Positions 1,952 to 27,928 of a DNA stretch of 28,175 bases are shown here, in pieces. Position 1 is the first letter of the stretch. Each line of letters opens with the position of its first letter. This stretch comes from a virus. Taxonomy: Duplodnaviria; Caudoviricetes. The stretch covers positions 1 through 28,175 of IMG/VR virus record IMGVR_UViG_3300017910_000554; one strand, given 5' to 3'. Under the pieces are notes generated by a model that made no database searches, was not told the DNA's origin, and was given only the letters and a program-made list of their open reading frames with translations. Made by a program: the position numbers and the translations under genes.

Positions 1952-4465
1952 TCAACGAGCTAAACTATACTTAAAAGGCATTTCGGCAAATGCCATATAA
2001 ACATACGTATGACCACTACCATTCCACTCGGCATTGGTTGTATTTAATTTGAAACCATTACTAAGTAATTGAACAGCATTAACTCCACTGTCTGCTACTT
2101 CGACAACACCTGAGTTTGCAGTTAAATAAGCACCAGTGCCAATCGAATAATTCATTCGCGGTGAACGTGCAGAATCATAAATCCACCACCTGCCTGTTTG
2201 CGATGTTACTTTGCCGAGCAAAAAAGTAGGAGCAAATCCAGTGTAAACGAATGCTCCGTCGGTGCCACTAGAATTGCCAGAATATGTGCCAAATTTAGAA
2301 TATCCCTCTACTTCATGCCAACACCATATAACTTGTGATTTACCACTTAAATTTGCATTACCTGCTACACCAATAGTTGTGCTACTAACAGAAGTTATTT
2401 GGTCGCTAGTTGCAACAGCATCAGTAAGATTTAATTTTAAAAAAGTTCCTAAAGATATTCCTTTATGCCAAACAACACGATTTGAACCAGAGCTATCTCT
2501 TGGAGTGGCTATTATCCAATCTGGACTTTGTGATAATCCATGAGCAATAGTATCTGTTCCTCCAGTTCCACTATAAGTAATAATACTAAAACCAGCAGTC
2601 GTGTTTGCTTGATATGTGCTATCTTCTGAACCAACACTTGTATAACTTGCATCGTTTGTGGTCGTAGTTCCACCATTTGCTTTCCAATTCCAAGCCACAT
2701 AAGTTCCACCATTATAATTTAATAAATCACCCGCAGAACCGTCTGTAGTAGTATTGAATCCGTCTGAAGTAAATCCATTAAATACGTCATGTGTGCTTTC
2801 TACTGATGTATTATTTGAAAAGATACCTTTATCATTACCTCTTGAACTGTCATAAAGTCTATGGCTAAAAGCCTGATTTCTTGCCTTGTTCCACATAAGG
2901 TCTGCTTGGAAATTAAATCCACTTATTGTTCTTGTAGAATCTGAGTTGCCTGTATATAAAAATGCTTCAAAATGATCATTAGCTTGTTCATCTGAATTAG
3001 GACCCAATGTTGACTCACTTAAATTAGAACTACAAAGAGCTAAATAACCTGAGGGAACTGCATATTTAAAATCCCCAACATTTTTACCATCTGCATTGCC
3101 TCCTGCACTAACAGCACCATTAAAAGTAGAATCTTGTCCAAAATTGAAAGTAACATCAAATGAACTTATAGTCCCTCCATTAGCTCCTCCCGCCGCAAAA
3201 TAAGTAAATGATGTATCTATACCTGTCACAGCAGTTCCTAAAGAAGAACCATTTTTATAAATTATCCAAGTGCCATTTTCTAAATCTAAAGCATGACCTA
3301 AAATATCACCACTGGTATGTGCTGAACCAAAAGCAGAAGTAGAATTATTATGCCTTATACCATGAGTACCACCACTATTAACTTGAGTATAACCATATCC
3401 AGATAATGTAGCAGAACTTCCATTACCTAAAGATTGACCATAAGTTCCATCATCTACAGATTTACTTATTGTTGAATATGGTGCAAAACCTACATTCCAA
3501 TCCCTAGCATCAGCAGGTGTTCCACCACCACTAAGTCTTGTTTCCCAATACCATTTACCACCTTTCATTCCAAAATTACAAACTACTCCAGCATCATAAT
3601 TACTAGGGGATAGAGTGCTACCATCAAAAAATAAGTTTCCTTGAGAAGCAGCAACTGTTGATGTAAGACTTTGTGCCTGAAAGTTTATAGTGCAAAAATT
3701 ATTCTCAGGAGTATCTTTTACCACATCTGAAGCCGCTAAATTTGTAACTGCAAAATGTTTATTATTACCTGATGTGTCAGCACCTATACCGCTTGAGTTT
3801 TGTGAAGTCCCCGTTTGTAAATATTGCAATCTATGCCCATTTGTGCCATAGGTTAAACCAGAAATATCTATTGGAATAAATACTCCCTCTTTAAATTCTC
3901 CAAAACTTGTGCCTGCTAATTGTGCACCGTCTATTTGCACACATTCGGCTAAATATCCGTCAAAATATAAACTAGATGTTTCTCGCCTACCCCAATATAT
4001 TTTGCCATTATTCGCCTTTATATCTGCATCTTGGCTTGGATTATTTGTTGTTGAAAAAGATGTTTCTTGAACTCCATTTACATAAATTTTAATTCTATCG
4101 TTTGCAGTGCTTTGTGATGAATCAAAAGCAACAACTATATGATACCAAGCCGCTGTATCTTTAAATACTCTATTTGTTGTTCTCATAGCAGTATCGCCTA
4201 TTTGCACATTTAATGTATTGCCAGATAAAAAACCTATTTGATTTCTATTTGTTCCGCTTCCGTCATAACAAGACCACATTCGCATATCATCAGATAAATC
4301 GCCTCTTTTACACCAAAAAGCGATTGTTGCTTTGGTTGTTGAGCCACCTGATAAACTGGAAAGTGATAAGTCTGGACTATCGGATTGTTCAAACCTTAAT
4401 GACCGAGTCACCTGATCATTATAAAATCCAGTAACAGCACCAAACCATTTTTCATTTGCTACCAT
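1952..4465 (-). CDS. Virion receptor-binding protein with LamG/concanavalin-A and SPRY-like domains
   Basis: LamG motifs (TIAFW, WYHIVVAFD, IKIYVNG, FDGYLAE), SPRY motifs (GKWYWE, GDILGHALDL, FNFGQ), and C-terminal YTGN/YSGT repeats. Located in the tail region. Confidence 0.75.
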   Translation of the reverse strand: MVANEKWFGAVTGFYNDQVTRSLRFEQSDSPDLSLSSLSGGSTTKATIAFWCKRGDLSDDMRMWSCYDGSGTNRNQIGFLSGNTLNVQIGDTAMRTTNRVFKDTAAWYHIVVAFDSSQSTANDRIKIYVNGVQETSFSTTNNPSQDADIKANNGKIYWGRRETSSLYFDGYLAECVQIDGAQLAGTSFGEFKEGVFIPIDISGLTYGTNGHRLQYLQTGTSQNSSGIGADTSGNNKHFAVTNLAASDVVKDTPENNFCTINFQAQSLTSTVAASQGNLFFDGSTLSPSNYDAGVVCNFGMKGGKWYWETRLSGGGTPADARDWNVGFAPYSTISKSVDDGTYGQSLGNGSSATLSGYGYTQVNSGGTHGIRHNNSTSAFGSAHTSGDILGHALDLENGTWIIYKNGSSLGTAVTGIDTSFTYFAAGGANGGTISSFDVTFNFGQDSTFNGAVSAGGNADGKNVGDFKYAVPSGYLALCSSNLSESTLGPNSDEQANDHFEAFLYTGNSDSTRTISGFNFQADLMWNKARNQAFSHRLYDSSRGNDKGIFSNNTSVESTHDVFNGFTSDGFNTTTDGSAGDLLNYNGGTYVAWNWKANGGTTTTNDASYTSVGSEDSTYQANTTAGFSIITYSGTGGTDTIAHGLSQSPDWIIATPRDSSGSNRVVWHKGISLGTFLKLNLTDAVATSDQITSVSSTTIGVAGNANLSGKSQVIWCWHEVEGYSKFGTYSGNSSGTDGAFVYTGFAPTFLLGKVTSQTGRWWIYDSARSPRMNYSIGTGAYLTANSGVVEVADSGVNAVQLLSNGFKLNTTNAEWNGSGHTYVYMAFAEMPFKYSLAR

Positions 4466-21270: not shown

Positions 21271-22491
21271 CTAATTTATTTTTTTTGCTTTTTTTCCAGT
21301 ATAATTTTCCCACCTTTGAATTATTACATCTATATAAACTGGGTCTAATTCTATTCCATAACCAATACGACCTAATTTTTCTGATGCTATTATTGATGTT
21401 CCAGTTCCACAAAAACAATCCACAACACCCCTTGATTTATTCATTAAATCGCCAACAACAAACTCTGGTAAATGGACTGGAAATGTTGCTCCGTGAATTT
21501 GAGAAAATTCATTTTTTCTTTGTGGTGGAGCTTGATAAACATTTGAAAATTTACCTTGCCAACTTGCATATGGAATTACTCTTGAGGGATTATTTTTATT
21601 TGTATATAAAAACAACCATTCGTATCTACTAGACATGACTCCTTTTTGTATTTGTGGTGCCGAATGCCCTTTATCCCAAGTTATTATATCAATCATTTTT
21701 GAGGCATATTCTGATAATAAATTCATTAATGGTTTTTTTGATTTTGCTAATGGTTGCAAATTAAACACTGAAACTTCACAAAAAGACAGAGAACAATTTA
21801 AAGAATTTTTAATTAAATGTAAATAATCATCATCTTCTACTTTATCCTGATAATTTGAATAAGCAGAATTTTTTTTATTTAAAAAAGTATTTCCACTTAA
21901 TTTAATTGATTCCCCTAAATTATAAGGTGGTGAAGTAAAACATATAATACCTTTTTCGATCTGTAACTTTTCCCAAACTTTAATATCAGTCGCATCTCCA
22001 CAAATTATTTTATGTTTTCCTAATTCATAAATATCGCCAAGTTTTGATTTAGGTTTTTTAGGTGGTTCAGGTATTTTATCTTCATCAGTTAAATATTGTT
22101 CATCATTTTTTAAAAATTCATCTAATTCAGTAGAATCAAAACCTAACAAGTCTATATTGTAATTATCATCTAATAAACTTTTAACTTCTAAATCTAGCAA
22201 ATCAAAATCCCAAATAGAATCCTCATTTAATCGGTTATCAGCTATTCTATATGCTTTTGCTTTAGACTCCGATAAATCTGCAATTTGGACTGGGACTTGT
22301 TTTAAACCTATTTTTTTAGCTCCTAATAATCTGGTATGACCCACAATAACAATCATATTTTTATCAACTACAATAGGTTGTTGAAACCCATATTCAGCAA
22401 TAGAACTAGCAACTTTGTCTACTGCTTGATTTTTTCTTGGATTATTGTGATAAGGTATTACCTTTTCAATATCTATATTTTCTATATTCAT
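21271..22491 (-). CDS. ParB/Srx-domain fused DNA amino-methyltransferase (beta class, probably m4C)
   Basis: N-terminal NNPR...YGFQQPIVVD...VGHTR...RIADNR. Catalytic TSPPY precedes SAM-binding DCFCGTGT. Likely ATG at 22491. Confidence 0.85.
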   Translation of the reverse strand: MNIENIDIEKVIPYHNNPRKNQAVDKVASSIAEYGFQQPIVVDKNMIVIVGHTRLLGAKKIGLKQVPVQIADLSESKAKAYRIADNRLNEDSIWDFDLLDLEVKSLLDDNYNIDLLGFDSTELDEFLKNDEQYLTDEDKIPEPPKKPKSKLGDIYELGKHKIICGDATDIKVWEKLQIEKGIICFTSPPYNLGESIKLSGNTFLNKKNSAYSNYQDKVEDDDYLHLIKNSLNCSLSFCEVSVFNLQPLAKSKKPLMNLLSEYASKMIDIITWDKGHSAPQIQKGVMSSRYEWLFLYTNKNNPSRVIPYASWQGKFSNVYQAPPQRKNEFSQIHGATFPVHLPEFVVGDLMNKSRGVVDCFCGTGTSIIASEKLGRIGYGIELDPVYIDVIIQRWENYTGKKAKKIN

Positions 22492-23348
22492 TATAGCCAC
22501 CCTCTCATATCTAAATAAATTTCAGCATCATTTTTATTAAATTTGTTTTCATTGATAGCCCTTTTAACCAGATGAATATTATCTCTTGCTATTTTACTTG
22601 TTGCGGGTCTTTCTTGTTTAGATTCAATTACTTCTATAAATCTTTTTAAGTAAAATGTGTAATCATCAATTTTTTCTTCGTTTATTTTTACTTCTTCATC
22701 TTCGTATTTTCTAGCTGATAACCAAAAAGCTGGTTGTTTAGCAAATTTTTTATCTTCTACATTATCAAAGTATTTATTATACATATTTGCTAACTCTACT
22801 GCTTTTTCTTTCCATTCTATATCTAAATTATTAAAGTTTTTTTCAGCTATTCCCTTGCTAACCTTATTTTTAACCTTTTCCCAAAATAAAGGGAAATTAC
22901 TCTTTTCTTTGGTTTTAGGTTTAATGGTAGTGGTAGTGGTAGGGGTAGGGGGGTTTTCGCTAGGTTTAGGGCTAGGTTTTTTTGGTCGCCCTCCTAACTT
23001 ACCATTTTGTCTTGATGCTTCTATTCTATTCGTAATATATAAATATTCTTGTAATTGTCTTTCATTTTGATAATGATCGTTAATTTTTATAAAAAATTCT
23101 TTAATTACTGATTCGCATGATTTCTTTTCTTCTTCAGAAATGCAATTTGCTATTCTATGCTGTGTCATGCTATCGCATGGTATGCCGCAACATCTTTTAT
23201 TCCAATTCCAACATAGTAAACGTATATAAATACCGACTTCAAGATTACTTAAATGACTCGTTCCAGAAATAAAAGAATCTGTAAATAAATACCATGCTTT
23301 TAATTTTTCATTTGGTTTTGAATTTTCTTCAATAAATGTTTTGTCCAT
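22491..23348 (-). CDS. DUF1376/YdaU-family replication initiator-like protein
   Basis: LSNLEVGIYIRLL..W, NERQ, NGKLGGRPK, Pro/Thr linker, and C-terminal FW...K..K..A...PAFWL domain. Confidence 0.75.
   Translation of the reverse strand: MDKTFIEENSKPNEKLKAWYLFTDSFISGTSHLSNLEVGIYIRLLCWNWNKRCCGIPCDSMTQHRIANCISEEEKKSCESVIKEFFIKINDHYQNERQLQEYLYITNRIEASRQNGKLGGRPKKPSPKPSENPPTPTTTTTIKPKTKEKSNFPLFWEKVKNKVSKGIAEKNFNNLDIEWKEKAVELANMYNKYFDNVEDKKFAKQPAFWLSARKYEDEEVKINEEKIDDYTFYLKRFIEVIESKQERPATSKIARDNIHLVKRAINENKFNKNDAEIYLDMRGWL
22911..22985. repeat. Iteron-like repeats in the initiator linker (candidate origin)
   Basis: GCTAGGTTT at 22959-22967 and 22971-22979, TAGGTTT at 22916-22922, and GGTAG(T/G) x4 at 22926-22949. 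Confidence 0.45.
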
Positions 23349-23388
23349 AATATACTCCTCAATTTAAAACATTTTATCACAAATTAAT

Positions 23389-23416
23389 TAAAACCTAAAC
23401 TTTTTTTTAGGTAAAA
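23389..23416. promoter_or_regulatory. Palindromic operator 1 (TAAAACCTA-N10-TAGGTAAAA) upstream of the initiator
   Basis: Same left half-site and 10-nt spacer as the site at 23983-24010. An extended -10 TGATAAAAT on the minus strand (23379-23371) lies just downstream. Confidence 0.55.
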
Positions 23417-23446
23417 GAAAACCCTTAAAATAAATTAAGGGCTTTC
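23412..23446 (-). terminator. Rho-independent terminator
   Basis: GAAAGCCCUUAA-UUUAUU-UUAAGGGUUUUC (12 bp, one G-U) followed by UUUU. Confidence 0.7.
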
Positions 23447-23500
23447 CTTATTAATTAACAGTCATAAGACTTAAAACAAATGAGGAGTATGTTTAAGTCC
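23412..23500 (-). ncRNA. Candidate ~90-nt small RNA with an anti-Shine-Dalgarno loop
   Basis: Promoter at 23535-23507. Stem GGACUUAAACA/UGUUUUAAGUCU encloses the loop UACUCCUCAUU, followed by a terminator hairpin. G-U pairs form only on the minus strand. Confidence 0.6.
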
Positions 23501-23506
23501 TTAATT

Positions 23507-23535
23507 ATTTAAGCATATAATTTTTATATTAGCAA
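23507..23535 (-). promoter_or_regulatory. Promoter for the candidate sRNA
   Basis: TTGCTA-N17-TTAAAT with TG extension, then AATTAA and G23500. Same -35/-10 pattern as 23956-23928. Confidence 0.5.
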
Positions 23536-23909
23536 TTTATTTTTGCCATTTGTTTTAATGGAATATATTTTTTAATAATTGATTCAACTTGATATAAACA
23601 ATCGCTTAAATTTCCTTGAATAATGAAATGTGGTGTTTCATAGATTGACGATTGAACTTTCCATAATTTTTGTGCTTCTGATAATTTCCCTTTTTGATTT
23701 TTTATTTCTAAATATAACATTTTGCCTTTTGGGTATTCTATAATCATATCTGGGGCACCAGCTCTTAATCCCATTTTTTTTAATTTAACTTGAAATGATA
23801 TTTTTTTTTTTTTTTTTTTTGGCACATGAAAATGACGAAATAAATAAGCTTTTGATAAATGATTTAATAAAACATTACAGGCTATTTGTATATCTGATTC
23901 TTTTATCAT
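23529..23909 (-). CDS. VRR-NUC domain nuclease (Holliday junction resolvase-like)
   Basis: ESDIQ, FHVP, KKMG...GAPD, YLEIK...GKLSEAQKLW. Contains a suspicious 20-nt homopolymer. Confidence 0.8.
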   Translation of the reverse strand: MIKESDIQIACNVLLNHLSKAYLFRHFHVPKKKKKKISFQVKLKKMGLRAGAPDMIIEYPKGKMLYLEIKNQKGKLSEAQKLWKVQSSIYETPHFIIQGNLSDCLYQVESIIKKYIPLKQMAKINC

Positions 23910-23927
23910 TTTTACCTCTTTTTATGT

Positions 23928-23956
23928 ATTTAATAAAAAATTTAAAAAAAAAGCAA
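23928..23956 (-). promoter_or_regulatory. Leftward promoter
   Basis: TTGCTT-N17-TTAAAT upstream of the GAGGT RBS of the VRR-NUC gene. Confidence 0.5.
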
Positions 23957-23974
23957 TTATTTTACGTTTTTAAC

Positions 23975-24002
23975 TTTACTTTTAAAACCTAGACTTTATA
24001 AT
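23975..24002 (+). promoter_or_regulatory. Rightward early promoter
   Basis: TTTACT-N16-TATAAT upstream of the GAGGAG RBS of the first plus-strand gene. Confidence 0.5.
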
Positions 24003-24010
24003 AGGTTTTA
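23983..24010. promoter_or_regulatory. Palindromic operator 2 (TAAAACCTA-N10-TAGGTTTTA)
   Basis: Perfect 9-bp inverted repeat straddling the -10 of the rightward promoter. Confidence 0.6.
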
Positions 24011-24036
24011 TAATAATAAAAAATGAGGAGTTAAAA

Positions 24037-24246
24037 ATGTACTATACAGAAAAAGTTTTAAGATACAGAGTTTACACCCAAGACAAAATTGCTGAAGATA
24101 AAGATGTTTGGTCTTTATATTATTCATCAAATGATTTACTTGATGCAGATAAAGTAAAGTGTTCTTTTGACAATGACGAGTTAAGAATAGCTAGACTTTA
24201 TGACAATCGTTGTGAAAGCACAATCCAGCGTTCAATGTTAATATGA
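24037..24246 (+). CDS. Hypothetical early protein
   Basis: 69 aa, strong GAGGAG RBS, first gene of the operon. Confidence 0.75.
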   Translation: MYYTEKVLRYRVYTQDKIAEDKDVWSLYYSSNDLLDADKVKCSFDNDELRIARLYDNRCESTIQRSMLI

Positions 24247-24398
24247 TTTTAGAAAGAGCATTTAAAGATATTAAAAGGTTTGACCTTATCAGCAATGGTA
24301 AGGTCACCCATTTCTTTCGTGTAATTTTTTTAGATGATACGATTGGATTATACGATAATAAAATGATTAAAATTAATATTTACAATAATAGGACATAA
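24243..24398 (+). CDS. Hypothetical protein (51 aa, not in ORF track)
   Basis: MILERAFKDIKRFDLISNGKVTHFFRVIFLDDTIGLYDNKMIKINIYNNRT*. ATGA overlap with the previous gene. Confidence 0.65.
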   Translation: MILERAFKDIKRFDLISNGKVTHFFRVIFLDDTIGLYDNKMIKINIYNNRT

Positions 24399-24447
24399 CA
24401 CCAAAAGGGGATCGAACACCCCATAATAATAATAATAGGAGATAATA

Positions 24448-24639
24448 ATGAAATCAAATATCGAAAATTTACTACTTCAAAAAGTAACCATTTTAAAAGG
24501 CAGATTAGCAAAACAACCATATTGCACACCTTTTGATAATCAAGAGTTATTTCACTTTAAAAACTCAATAGATGAGTTATTTGAAATTTCTACTGAACTT
24601 TTAAAAAAATCAAATATTAATAATTATAAGGAGAAATAA
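24448..24639 (+). CDS. Hypothetical protein
   Basis: 63 aa, AGGAG RBS. Confidence 0.7.
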   Translation: MKSNIENLLLQKVTILKGRLAKQPYCTPFDNQELFHFKNSIDELFEISTELLKKSNINNYKEK

Positions 24640-24641
24640 TA

Positions 24642-24848
24642 ATGAACAATTTATTACATGATTTAGCAAAACTAGATGAAGTAAAACAAATTTTAGTTAC
24701 ATTTTTATATACAAATCGAAAAGATCACCATCTTCATAAAAATATTCAAAATGCTATGAATATCGTTGGGGAGTTAATTCAAGAAAAAAGCAACAGAGTC
24801 GATGAAATCATTGAAATTGATAAGCGGAGGTCTCAATGGGGAAAGTAA
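24642..24848 (+). CDS. Hypothetical protein
   Basis: 68 aa, AGGAG RBS, helical. Confidence 0.7.
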   Translation: MNNLLHDLAKLDEVKQILVTFLYTNRKDHHLHKNIQNAMNIVGELIQEKSNRVDEIIEIDKRRSQWGK

Positions 24849-25048
24849 ACTCTTTAATTTTAGATTGGCAACAAAAAATCCATGAGATTGAAGATTATCC
24901 AATTATAATTTCAGAAGCAGAAAATGTTTCTGAACTTGTTGCTTTTGTTGTTGATTATTTAGACTTAAAATATGACATTGATAAAGATCATGTTTTTCAT
25001 ATTTGTTCCGAAGATTGGAATGAATATTGGTCTTATTATAATATGTGA
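24836..25048 (+). CDS. Hypothetical acidic protein
   Basis: 70 aa, GGAGG RBS, acidic/aromatic. Confidence 0.7.
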   Translation: MGKVNSLILDWQQKIHEIEDYPIIISEAENVSELVAFVVDYLDLKYDIDKDHVFHICSEDWNEYWSYYNM

Positions 25049-25440
25049 TCGTTATGAACAAAAACATTTTAAGGCACATTAAAAATGCTACCCCAAAAAA
25101 ATATACATTTTGGAATACAGATAAACATTTTAAAATTAGTTTTATTTTTCTGCTACTAATACTTATTTTAATATTATCTGGTTGCAGTTCAATGCCAATA
25201 GTCGATAGCAGAGGTAAATCAGCGGCGAATATCAAAGGCGATATGAACCGATTCCATGATGATTATTTTACTTGTAAAAGCCTTGTAGAATTAGAAACAA
25301 ATACTGTTTTAGATTATGGAAAAATCTTATATAATAGTATGAGGTGGCGAGTTTTATGGTTATCACCAAAAATTAACACACGATCTGACTTAATAAATAA
25401 TTGTCTTGAGGGTCGTGGTTATAATGTCATTAATAAATAA
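25045..25440 (+). CDS. Lipoprotein (possible superinfection exclusion)
   Basis: Hydrophobic stretch plus lipobox ILSG/C, then PIVD, D...C and NCLEGRGY motifs. Start is GTG 25045 or ATG 25054. Confidence 0.7.
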   Translation: MIVMNKNILRHIKNATPKKYTFWNTDKHFKISFIFLLLILILILSGCSSMPIVDSRGKSAANIKGDMNRFHDDYFTCKSLVELETNTVLDYGKILYNSMRWRVLWLSPKINTRSDLINNCLEGRGYNVINK

Positions 25441-25454
25441 CAGAGGAGTAAAAT

Positions 25455-25874
25455 ATGACAGATCAAATAACAGGAACAGTTAAAAGTTGTTTCGATAATT
25501 CAAAAGAGGGCGAATATAATTATGCTATTATCTTGAATGATGAAACAAGGCTTTATTATCGAGGTTTTGAATTGAACCCATTATTGCAAAATGGCGATAC
25601 CATTAAATATAAAGTTATCAATACCAAACATTCAAAGCAAGGCAATCCATATACAAATGTTAGTAGTGTGGAAATAGTTAACGATAATGCTGAATCACAA
25701 TCATCTGGAACAATTACCAATAATTTTACAAAAAATAATACACAAAGATTAGATATTTTTGTAACAGGTATTGTTGGTAGATCAATGGGTTCTGGTCATT
25801 TTTCGGTGCATGATATAAGCGAATTAACTAAAAATGCAGTTAGTGCTTTTAATGAAAACCTTAAAGAACTATAA
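25455..25874 (+). CDS. Putative OB-fold single-stranded DNA-binding protein
   Basis: Beta-rich N-terminal domain (ITGTV...GDTIKY...GNPYTNV), linker and helical C-terminus. Recombination-module context. Confidence 0.5.
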   Translation: MTDQITGTVKSCFDNSKEGEYNYAIILNDETRLYYRGFELNPLLQNGDTIKYKVINTKHSKQGNPYTNVSSVEIVNDNAESQSSGTITNNFTKNNTQRLDIFVTGIVGRSMGSGHFSVHDISELTKNAVSAFNENLKEL

Positions 25875-26142
25875 AAAATTGTTTTCTGACTTTTGGGGAT
25901 ATTGTGAAAGCGATATCCCTATATGTTGGGGTTGTCATAAAGAGCAAGCAGTAGATATACATCACCTAACTCAAAAAGGCATGGGTGGTGTAAAAAATAA
26001 CAGATTAAATAGAATTGATAATCTTTTTCCAGTTTGTAGGTCTTGTCATACGATTGCACATAGAAATAAATCTATAAATGAAAAATGGAAAAATGTTTTA
26101 AAAGAAAAAATGATTTTAAAAGAGGGTGGGTATGATTGGTAA
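25852..26142 (+). CDS. HNH endonuclease (zinc-binding)
   Basis: CWGC...DIHH...N...NL..VCRSCH. Likely ATG at 25852. Confidence 0.8.
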   Translation: MKTLKNYKKLFSDFWGYCESDIPICWGCHKEQAVDIHHLTQKGMGGVKNNRLNRIDNLFPVCRSCHTIAHRNKSINEKWKNVLKEKMILKEGGYDW

Positions 26143-26419
26143 AGAATTGATGGATAAAGCGTTAGCAGTAGTCAATGCTAGAGGAAAGAATTATGGGGAC
26201 ATTAAAGAAAACCATAATTTATGTGCAGTTGGCATTAATGCAATAACTGAATATGCGATTAAAGAACATGGCAAAGTTTTGGATTATCATTTTGCTCTTA
26301 TAATGCTTTGGGTTAAAATTGTAAGATTATTAACAAATCCTAAGCATTTAGATAGTTGGGTTGATTTAATTGGTTATGCCATTACTGGTTATGAAAATAT
26401 AAAGGGGAGTAAAAAATGA
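26132..26419 (+). CDS. DUF6378-like all-helical nucleotide pyrophosphohydrolase-like protein
   Basis: RGKNYGD...KIVR...DSWVDLIGYA motif. Confidence 0.7.
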   Translation: MIGKELMDKALAVVNARGKNYGDIKENHNLCAVGINAITEYAIKEHGKVLDYHFALIMLWVKIVRLLTNPKHLDSWVDLIGYAITGYENIKGSKK

Positions 26420-26769
26420 CTGATATTTATTCCTTACAATTTGACCCACAAGCCATATCAATAAAGCAAGAAGAATTAGGTTTGCATTTTGCTGATTTAG
26501 ATACTGCTGTTGATTTAATGAAAAAAGAAGAAAAAATGATAGTTGCTGAATTAACTATTTACTATACGAGAAAAGGCGGATACAAGAATATGACAGAATT
26601 AAATGGTTATATTAATTCTGATAACAAGATTAAGGATTTTGCCATTAGATATGAAAAAGTCCTTAAAGAAAGAAATCGTTCTAAAATTAGATACGATACT
26701 TTCAAATCTTTCAGCGATAATTTGAGAACAAAAATGGTCAATGAAAGAGAATTAGCAAAAAACTTATAA
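26416..26769 (+). CDS. Coiled-coil protein (possibly a UvsY-like mediator)
   Basis: 117 aa all-helical hairpin pattern ending LRTKMVNER. GGGGAG RBS. Confidence 0.55.
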   Translation: MTDIYSLQFDPQAISIKQEELGLHFADLDTAVDLMKKEEKMIVAELTIYYTRKGGYKNMTELNGYINSDNKIKDFAIRYEKVLKERNRSKIRYDTFKSFSDNLRTKMVNERELAKNL

Positions 26770-26783
26770 CAGAGGAGTTAATT

Positions 26784-27005
26784 ATGAGTAATAAAACAAC
26801 ACAAAATAAAGAAATTTTAAAATGGCTTGAATCTGGCAAATCTATTACAGGATTAGAAGCAATAGAACGATTTGGTTGTTATCGATTAAGTGCAAGAATT
26901 TTTAATTTAAGAGAAAATGGTTATCAAATTGTTACCAAAAACATAACTAAAAATGGCAAAACTTTTGCTGAGTATTCTTTGGCTAATCCATATTTTACCA
27001 TTTAA
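26784..27005 (+). CDS. Winged helix-turn-helix DNA-binding protein (HTH_39-like)
   Basis: Q...IL..L..G..IT..EA...FGC.RLSARI..LR..GY.I motif. Confidence 0.8.
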   Translation: MSNKTTQNKEILKWLESGKSITGLEAIERFGCYRLSARIFNLRENGYQIVTKNITKNGKTFAEYSLANPYFTI

Positions 27006-27007
27006 TA

Positions 27008-27796
27008 ATGATTGAACATTTTAAGAAGTTCGATAGTGATAGTAAGAAAAATCTACTGCCATTATCTTTTAGTCAATTATCTGAATTTGCTTTTAATCGG
27101 GAGCGGTGGGCTTTAAGGCGTATATTTGGTTATGAGTTTCCTACATCTGCCGCTATGGAAAGAGGAAAAGCAGTGGAATCAGGTTTAAATATGTTTCTTA
27201 ATGGTCTTGATAAAGATGAATCAATTAAAAAAATGATTAACGAATATGAAGCCAATTGTGCTAATATTCAAGATGCTAAATATTTAGAAGAAAAAGAAAA
27301 TTTAACACCTTTGTTTCATTTAGGTGCGGAAAAGTTAATTGATTTTGCTTTTAAATGGAATCTTATTAGTTTTCAAAATAAAATTGAATTAGATATTGAG
27401 GGTGTGCCATTTGTAGGTTTTACTGATTTTCAATTTGAAGATAAAAAAACAAAAGAAACTTTTTTTATAGATTTAAAAACCAGTTTAAGAAAACCAAGCG
27501 GTGTTTCAATGGCTCATGCTATGCAACAATCTATTTATAACAAAGGGACTAATGCCGAACAAAAATTATGGTATTTGATAGCAAAAAAATCTGGCACAGA
27601 ATTTTATGAGTTTCCTATTTATAATTATGACTACCCTATGAAAATATGTAAGCACATTATTAATGTTATGATTAACTTTTTAGAAAAGGTAAATTCTAAA
27701 GAAGATGTGAAAAATTGTTTAATACCAAACCCTGATGATTGGATTTGGCGAGAAGAAGCAGTTATAAAGGCACGAAAAGAGGTTTGGGGGTATTAA
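27008..27796 (+). CDS. PD-(D/E)XK exonuclease (RecB/Cas4/RecE-like)
   Basis: LSFSQL, AMERGKAVE, GFTDF, IDLKTS and QQSIY motifs. Confidence 0.8.
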   Translation: MIEHFKKFDSDSKKNLLPLSFSQLSEFAFNRERWALRRIFGYEFPTSAAMERGKAVESGLNMFLNGLDKDESIKKMINEYEANCANIQDAKYLEEKENLTPLFHLGAEKLIDFAFKWNLISFQNKIELDIEGVPFVGFTDFQFEDKKTKETFFIDLKTSLRKPSGVSMAHAMQQSIYNKGTNAEQKLWYLIAKKSGTEFYEFPIYNYDYPMKICKHIINVMINFLEKVNSKEDVKNCLIPNPDDWIWREEAVIKARKEVWGY

Positions 27797-27928
27797 CTAC
27801 CCCTTGACCTTTAAAAGTCGCTGAGGGGCTTTAAAACTACGTTTAAAGCGGTTTTTGTTTTTTCTTTTCCTCATAGATCTTTTATTAATCATTACAGCCA
27901 AAGTCGTTGTCGTTGTGAAACCACTCAT
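27797..27928 (-). CDS. Basic microprotein (43 aa, not in ORF track)
   Basis: MSGFTTTTTLAVMINKRSMRKRKNKNRFKRSFKAPQRLLKVKG*. ATGA overlap upstream. Its stop abuts the exonuclease stop. Confidence 0.6.
   Translation of the reverse strand: MSGFTTTTTLAVMINKRSMRKRKNKNRFKRSFKAPQRLLKVKG
27828..27868 (+). terminator. Putative terminator of the plus-strand early operon
   Basis: GCTTTAAA-ACTACG-TTTAAAGC hairpin followed by GGTTTTTGTTTTTTCTTTT. Confidence 0.5.

Follow-up and report, generated by a model that had tools for sequence, protein, structure and literature searches.

A candidate regulatory RNA whose hairpin loop changes together with the replication-initiator ribosome-binding site in a family of marine phages

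Between a nuclease gene and the likely replication-initiator gene of a tailed phage lies a two-hairpin element which, judged by comparison with related loci, is a real and conserved regulatory RNA candidate, apparently undescribed, and of which the copy discussed here is an outlier. The loop of its first hairpin is complementary to the initiator's ribosome-binding site (RBS), and across the relatives loop and site change together, lineage by lineage. The candidate is probably a trans-acting antisense RNA, its loop pairing with the RBSs of its own phage's initiator and of a few early genes and blocking their translation. The initiator RBS is the most constant target of the loop.

The element and its predicted targets

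The window, that is the whole 28,175-nucleotide stretch analysed (IMG/VR record IMGVR_UViG_3300017910_000554), is a 28-kb tailed-phage contig of 31.6% GC. Its host is likely to be SAR11, because the nearest cultured phages are HTVC111P-type pelagiphages (HTVC111P, 112P, 026P, and 202P; 67–69% identity for the capsid and 56–58% for the terminase). In the available part of the preprint describing them, these are reported to be lytic, with integrase absent from both the isolates and the environmental cluster (bioRxiv 10.1101/2019.12.14.876532). Neither an integrase nor a prophage was found when they were looked for in the window phage, and no sign of lysogeny is evident from its sequence. The window exonuclease retrieved zero relatives from GTDB genomes, while the eight capsid relatives found there sit on contigs of 1–12 kb in bins of unrelated taxa and give no evidence of a prophage or of a host. 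About 1.2 kb between the window's ends is seemingly missing from the contig; in two relatives, the corresponding stretch holds ORFs that by eye would resemble lysis genes.

The element is located between the VRR-NUC nuclease gene (23529–23909, minus strand) and the gene for the likely initiator, a DUF1376 protein related to PHROG primosomal and replication-initiation families (22491–23348, minus strand). It overlaps neither a target RBS nor a gene, and the early operon starts at 24037, running in the direction opposite to that of both element and initiator. Hairpin 1 (23467–23500, minus strand) is the predicted guide: its 11-nt loop (23489–23479) is complementary to the initiator and early RBSs, and in relatives this is the architecture whose loop covaries. 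Hairpin 2 (23414–23449, minus strand), with a core stem at 23441–23422 followed by a U-rich run, is a likely intrinsic terminator that may act bidirectionally. Both hairpins and all four RBS matches described in the initial annotation are present, position for position. The 12-bp terminator that it proposed does exist as hairpin 2 (23449–23414), but the predicted fold gives it 15 bp, and in the terminator scan it appears for the plus strand alone. Over 89 nt of the minus strand, the two hairpins fold with −26.0 kcal/mol (z −4.8, none of 200 shuffles being equally stable), as compared with −18.9 kcal/mol (z −3.4) for the plus strand of the same 89 nt.

The promoter candidates facing this structure (23507–23535, minus strand) are weak. 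Those first annotated, TTGCTA (23535–23530) and TTAAAT (23512–23507) separated by 17 nt, are in place, but the second hexamer is without the A that is conserved at its position 2, and the site is absent from the output of the promoter scan. Since an extended −10 motif, TGcTAATAT (23534–23526), is an equally weak alternative, the start site G23500 is uncertain; this motif stands 44 nt ahead of the loop core, and the commonest spacing in relatives is 45–47 nt. With our own promoter scoring, the window promoter reaches 12.0 against a shuffle mean of 12.9. Another extended −10 motif, TGaTAAAAT (23371–23379, minus strand), is likely to be the initiator's own promoter, as far as its sequence indicates. 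A contig from a different study covers 23100–23754 with 19 differences; 18 are listed, of which three fall near the element (23457, 23502, and 23503) and none within the hairpins. Public sequencing runs yielded no entry of the RNA kind for the sequence, a result with no bearing on its expression, and runs X5–X8 leave the hairpin uncovered.

Two features of the neighboring VRR-NUC gene may be mentioned here. It carries a run of about 19 T (23803–23821) translated as PKKKKKKI, in a place where five relatives have NEGKR-type sequence of the same length (NEGRK in one of them), and this run is likely to be an assembly artefact. The gene also has an AAGAGG site, while in relatives (e.g., L003 480–545) hairpin 2 abuts the VRR-NUC start codon, without any Shine-Dalgarno (SD) sequence.

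What does the loop match in the window? Among 45 start regions, listed by hand and ranked with opening energies (accessibility) included, the top four are those singled out in the initial annotation: the initiator RBS (23352–23361, minus strand; 10-nt complement, rank 1), the RBS of the first early gene (24021–24031, plus strand; 11 nt, rank 2), that of the HTH_39 gene (26772–26778, plus strand; 7 nt, rank 3), and that of the early gene 25455–25874 (25443–25450, plus strand; 8 nt, rank 4). The capsid and tail-tube RBSs match at AGGAG and no further, and GGAGTAT is common to two late genes, both as already remarked there. With the CUCCU core held fixed and the flanks randomised, the chance of obtaining both long matches is 0.00035. 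The window loop pairs over 10 nt with its own initiator site, and over 6 nt at most with the sites of 14 other lineages.

Locus architecture and loop covariation in relatives

Related loci were fetched with five window proteins, keeping at most the best 80 matches per search, and the bounds of the control region were set in 181 of them, the window counted in. In the relatives, hairpin 1 and then hairpin 2 come after a promoter that faces away from the early genes, and behind the hairpins lies the VRR-NUC gene, some other gene, or a U-rich tail; in most relatives the element is placed as the 5′ leader of a longer predicted transcript rather than as a free-standing gene. The window is arranged differently, with the VRR-NUC gene 5′ of the hairpins, instead of 3′ of them as in the relatives that have this gene. 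A covariance model of 15 relatives does not recognise the window hairpin, and a blastn comparison with the relatives' loci gives no match, so it is by architecture that it is assigned to the family: we infer its membership from that architecture, from a usual place that is devoid of hairpins in the window, and from the similar loops of L199 and L182. The control region has zero blastn matches in 50,697 phage records, and among the 11 matches of an exact 16-mer scan of viral contigs, none is near any relative of the window proteins.

Several leaders have features of their own. Many contain a second CCUCC-type stretch or a small hairpin 5′ of hairpin 1 (L003 550–625, L056, L134, L145, and L163), and L182 has two anti-SD seeds within a single loop. 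A small ORF, whose 3′ end holds the initiator RBS, lies between the VRR-NUC gene (or leader) and the initiator in loci that share the gene order of the window (L147, L082, L119, and others); it is missing in the window and in L164. In most lineages, a AATAATAATAAT run precedes the first early RBS on its 5′ side (e.g., L017 1275–1300, at the early promoters).

Gene order divides the family. Among the 159 locus hits that have both exonuclease and initiator, 134 carry the two on one strand, and 25 resemble the window in having them on opposite strands; the early block of the window is inverted relative to 78 of the first 80 relatives listed. Mis-assembly of this block was considered and excluded: the inverted order is natural, since 25 of the 159 locus hits share it and the contig from the other study spans 23100–23754. 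The block from VRR-NUC to exonuclease (window 23417–27800) is found in both orientations in the family, with its ends near an ACC-type operator half-site, and no recombinase gene was detected among the proteins scanned.

This division also bears on the way in which the RNA would act. In the window, a distance of about 125 nt separates the loop from the initiator RBS on the same strand, and where relatives share this gene order, a single predicted transcript contains both; the element could then be a purely cis-acting attenuator, the loop of a read-through RNA pairing with the initiator RBS while hairpin 2 limits transcription into the initiator. Such a restricted role is highly unlikely, for the first early gene, on the other strand, is matched equally well or better, the initiator apparently has its own promoter behind the terminator, and the commoner gene order rules out action in cis. 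With exonuclease and initiator in this commoner order, every target is on the opposite strand, and pairing in trans is therefore required.

The stem of hairpin 1 is kept amid sequence change. Because lineages align in different registers in a 39-row sequence-only alignment, changes were counted within sub-lineage alignments: compensatory changes on both sides affect six of nine pairs in 15 sequences and four of nine pairs in nine sequences, these being plain counts, and the former including one row (also in model R1) that is shifted by one base and adds one gap per pair. The probable strand of the RNA rests on the architecture of the locus, and G-U counts do not fix it. It is true that G-U pairs are confined to the minus strand in the window, as initially annotated, but this fails across the family, where the antisense-loop strand of 63 hairpins has 55 G-U pairs and the other strand 87, at equal stability. 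Likewise, guide/target runs at initiator sites end at 24 G-U-compatible versus 25 A-C positions. The best promoter facing the hairpin has a TTG-type −35 in 95 of 101 upstream regions; its mean score is 15.3, as for the early promoter (15.3), and on the antisense-loop strand the promoter outscores that of the opposite strand in 96 of the 101 regions, the opposite window being richer in G+C. A mini-ORF on the plus strand was also considered and rejected, since 47 of the 69 hairpins are without a start codon 4–11 nt past the SD-like motif, and in the others it is TTG (20) or GTG (two), never ATG.

The strongest evidence comes from the loops themselves. The initial annotation had proposed covariation of loop and RBS in relatives as a check, and it is clearly found. 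From 135 loci, 73 distinct loop/initiator-RBS pairs were obtained, in which loop and site shift together between types (in message sense, GGAGTTC, GGAGATC, GGAGGTC, GGAGGC, AAATGGG, ACGAGGA, AGGAGAAT, and the window's TGAGGAGTAT). With the initiators grouped into 46, 25, and 13 clusters, Watson-Crick runs of own pairs average 8.8, 8.9, and 8.4 nt respectively, against 6.3, 6.4, and 6.4 nt after shuffling, and in each case none of 5000 shuffles reaches the observed value. This test considered the 55 nt before hairpin 2, a region chosen blind to the targets, and kept hairpin-less cases; it used 68 of the 73 variants, leaving out five with initiator fragments shorter than 100 aa. At a cut of 0.4 the initiators form one single cluster, and the initiator tree is a quick one.

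Early sites are preferred over late ones, as the initial annotation had expected. For the initiator, 50 of 69 sites have runs of at least 8 nt and 65 have runs of at least 7 nt; for the first early gene these numbers are 39 and 42 of 69, for other early ORFs 83 and 113 of 764, and for late ORFs 13 and 28 of 549, counted in the loop region only, with L169, L170, L192, and L255 omitted, three loops picked by hand, starts predicted automatically, and loci that are non-independent. By duplex energy, 15 representative loops place their own initiator first in seven cases, second in four, and third to sixth in four. In seven of eight related pairs (hand-picked, two of them including L382), each loop prefers its own site to its partner's. 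The four omitted loci are the variants, out of 73, that have no matching hairpin; all are close kin of carriers. They make up a sub-lineage, of which L169 and L255 carry an extra gene in the control region.

Could the loop be a generic anti-SD RNA, which lowers host translation or competes with ribosomes, and whose phage matches are a by-product? Most loops do contain CUCC, and many leaders have that second CCUCC-type stretch further 5′. However, the loop flanks follow the phage's own sites, late phage sites with an ordinary SD seldom match, and the anti-SD core is entirely absent from one clade, all of which makes this explanation very improbable. To judge from its sequences, this AAATGGG clade is the clearest case against it: in several members both loop and initiator site are devoid of GGAG, and the early genes are not well matched. 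On the quick initiator tree, L382 lies inside the AAATGGG clade, yet its loop and its site have both switched; recombination of the entire upstream block could explain this.

Proposed mechanism and the place of the operator

How, then, would such an antisense RNA be made, and what would it do? In relatives, it would be transcribed from the divergent promoter pointing away from the early genes; in the window, either a weak local promoter would drive it or the VRR-NUC message would supply it as its 3′ end. Pairing would begin with the loop on the RBS, and the weak upper stem would open to give a duplex of 8–13 bp, whose position on the RBS would block 30S binding. The likely purpose would be a negative feedback, damping synthesis of the initiator and of the first early gene product as the infection advances.

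This feedback would come in addition to a protein operator on the same promoters. An operator-like palindrome, ACCTA-N10-TAGGT (23393–23414), stands before the initiator promoter, and a second one (23987–24008) overlaps the early promoter TTTACT-16-TATAAT (23975–24008, plus strand); palindromes of this kind (ACCTA-N~10-TAGGT) are found at both places in relatives as well, and in many of them also before the gene that matches window 25045–25440. Together with the gene for a winged-helix HTH_39 protein (26784–27005, plus strand; E 3.5e-18), the palindrome points to a protein regulator acting on DNA, with the HTH_39 protein, which had no match among solved structures, as a candidate binder. The initial reading of the element as an RNA repressor is supported in part: the element is structured and its loop tuned to its own initiator and first-early-gene RBSs, but the idea that it replaces a missing CI repressor is unsupported, because an operator-like palindrome and an HTH_39 gene are present and no integrase or prophage was found.

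Behind operators, early sites that match the loop are over-represented (59 of 115, versus 63 of 718). Such an enrichment suggests that the first gene of each unit is doubly locked, but it would also be allowed by the copying of cassettes. Recombination might indeed carry short promoter-RBS cassettes around the early region, the hairpin being a structural leader or terminator and the complementarity functionless. Cassettes of operator plus RBS are repeated in front of several early genes and match over up to 16 nt; where the gene order is that of the window, less than 1 kb separates the hairpin from the initiator site and the two are heritable as one block, and the match is missing in the four variants out of 73. 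On the other hand, 21 of 23 initiators with the window's gene order and no operator within 110 nt still match over at least 7 nt, and the AAATGGG clade matches at the initiator site alone, which in several members lies at the end of an upstream reading frame. Besides, the copy is placed in the loop while the stem sequence varies, and block inheritance keeps a match but cannot create one for each loop type. Functionless copying is thus quite unlikely.

The same enrichment may be turned into another argument, since matched sites cluster at operator-controlled promoters. The shared motif could be bound by some phage protein, be it a translational repressor, an RNase, or a DNA-binding protein, its copy in the hairpin then being a decoy or an extra site that acts through the plus strand or as DNA. 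The plus strand folds too (the z of −3.4 given above), and G-U pairs are, if anything, commoner on the strand displaying the SD (the 87 versus 55 already cited). But the promoter scan shows no promoter-like site on the plus strand 5′ of the hairpin (23250–23466), while the antisense-loop strand has the better promoter in those 96 of 101 regions, and in relatives the hairpin is preceded by that promoter and followed by a gene of like orientation. If the site were double-stranded DNA, a covarying stem would be unnecessary, and with so many forms of the motif, one of them without GGA, the specificity of the protein would need to switch each time. A protein site is accordingly unlikely.

If the antisense reading holds, a further role can be imagined, which is possible but doubtful: loop and initiator site would diversify as lock-and-key types, serving either RNA-encoded exclusion of same-type kin or plasmid-like copy control of a non-integrated carrier state. 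An infecting phage would then silence the start of replication in kin that arrive later and share its type, while sparing other types, and this in a lytic-looking family whose hosts are likely to be SAR11. The natural variants form a ready matrix of own and foreign guide/target pairs for reporters, and offer a handle on how phages of slow-growing oceanic bacteria time their replication or exclude their kin.

Comparison with known regulatory RNAs

To our knowledge, the phage RNAs that control genes of their own phage are mostly those of temperate phages infecting enteric hosts, and most of them lie opposite the genes that they target. The present family, marine and integrase-free, appears to maintain a guide encoded apart from its target, re-matched to the initiator site in at least eight loop types, and apparently kept matched through inversion of the early block and, in the window, relocation of the element. 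Plasmid copy-control antisense RNAs limit the replication gene of their own replicon and, like sar of P22, they are encoded in cis, opposite their target. As for the C4 RNA of P1 and P7, it is reportedly matured by RNase P, its specificity follows paired changes in guide and target, and C4 families are present in Rfam.

No description of the element was found in the literature searched, most subscription journals being outside its reach. The accessible parts of a 2025 review of phage small RNAs contain nothing similar (PMC12197685), and those of PMC2704228 and PMC11143913 add nothing on the element. A catalogue of 10,006 candidate phage RNAs has 41 rows with Pelagibacteraceae hosts and three rows beside DUF1376 genes (PMC10690425); as the sheets compared hold no sequences, a piece of the element may already stand there without a function.

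The HTVC111P-type pelagiphages come closest by phage lineage. Three of the four have strong hairpins with CU-repeat loops, and the two with ranked start regions have GAGAG-type early RBSs; they differ by another early module and an early region without the ACCTA-TAGGT operator, and the relatives' covariance model gives them a best E of 0.084, which is not convincing. The hairpins are at 4008–4040 (plus strand) and near 31409 (minus strand) in HTVC111P (L233), near 824 (minus strand) in L234, and near 32060 (minus strand) in L235. In HTVC026P, six of the top seven matches lie before the terminase gene; the pattern is weaker in HTVC111P, and its DnaD gene is matched over just 6 nt.

Among bacterial RNAs, AbcR1/2 and NfeR1 of Alphaproteobacteria block translation at RBSs through an anti-SD motif in the loop of a 5′ hairpin, according to the part of PMC8844928 consulted. 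The candidate resembles them by an anti-RBS seed exposed, in predicted folds, in a hairpin loop. From what that source covers, however, these RNAs are chromosomal and use fixed motifs such as CUCCUCCC against many host transporter messages, whereas the candidate loop varies along with a few phage targets. Their fixed CUCCUCCC-type motif is not encountered here: CUCCUCA stands in the loop of the window, the loops of other lineages differ, CUCC is absent from one clade, and Rfam gives no hit. Binding to Hfq is a further mark of AbcR.

Lambda OOP and P22 sar are small RNAs that limit a regulator gene of their own replicon (PMC12197685, in the part available). Like the plasmid RNAs, they lie opposite their target, which makes their match automatic, whereas guide and target of the candidate are separate and must change together. 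The C4 antisense RNA of P1 and P7 uses separate binding sites to silence other genes of the phage that encodes it (PMC8198154, as far as accessible), and the candidate would similarly have short complementarity to separate sites in its own phage's messages. Unlike C4, which belongs to the c4-icd-ant operon, it adjoins the VRR-NUC and DUF1376 initiator genes, has one loop seed predicted over the RBS, and occurs in a phage without sign of lysogeny; no antirepressor family was found among the proteins scanned (23 in PHROGs and 17 in Pfam), and Rfam gave no hit at E ≤ 1 in the window and none at the gathering score in 14 relatives. The CI RNA of P4 is derived from a leader and restrains replication genes by pairing at short complementary sites (PMC4825925, in the portion seen), and on that description the candidate is predicted to be alike on both counts. 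According to the same portion, P4 CI acts by premature termination through flanking seqA and seqC, while the complements of the candidate, which again has no Rfam hit, are RBSs, some of them on another transcript: of those with at least 8 nt, one lies downstream on the same strand (23361) and two lie on the other strand (24021 and 25443), and none is in the upstream leader of the same strand, unlike in P4 CI. By analogy, then, the candidate would function like P1 C4 or P4 CI RNA while belonging to neither family.
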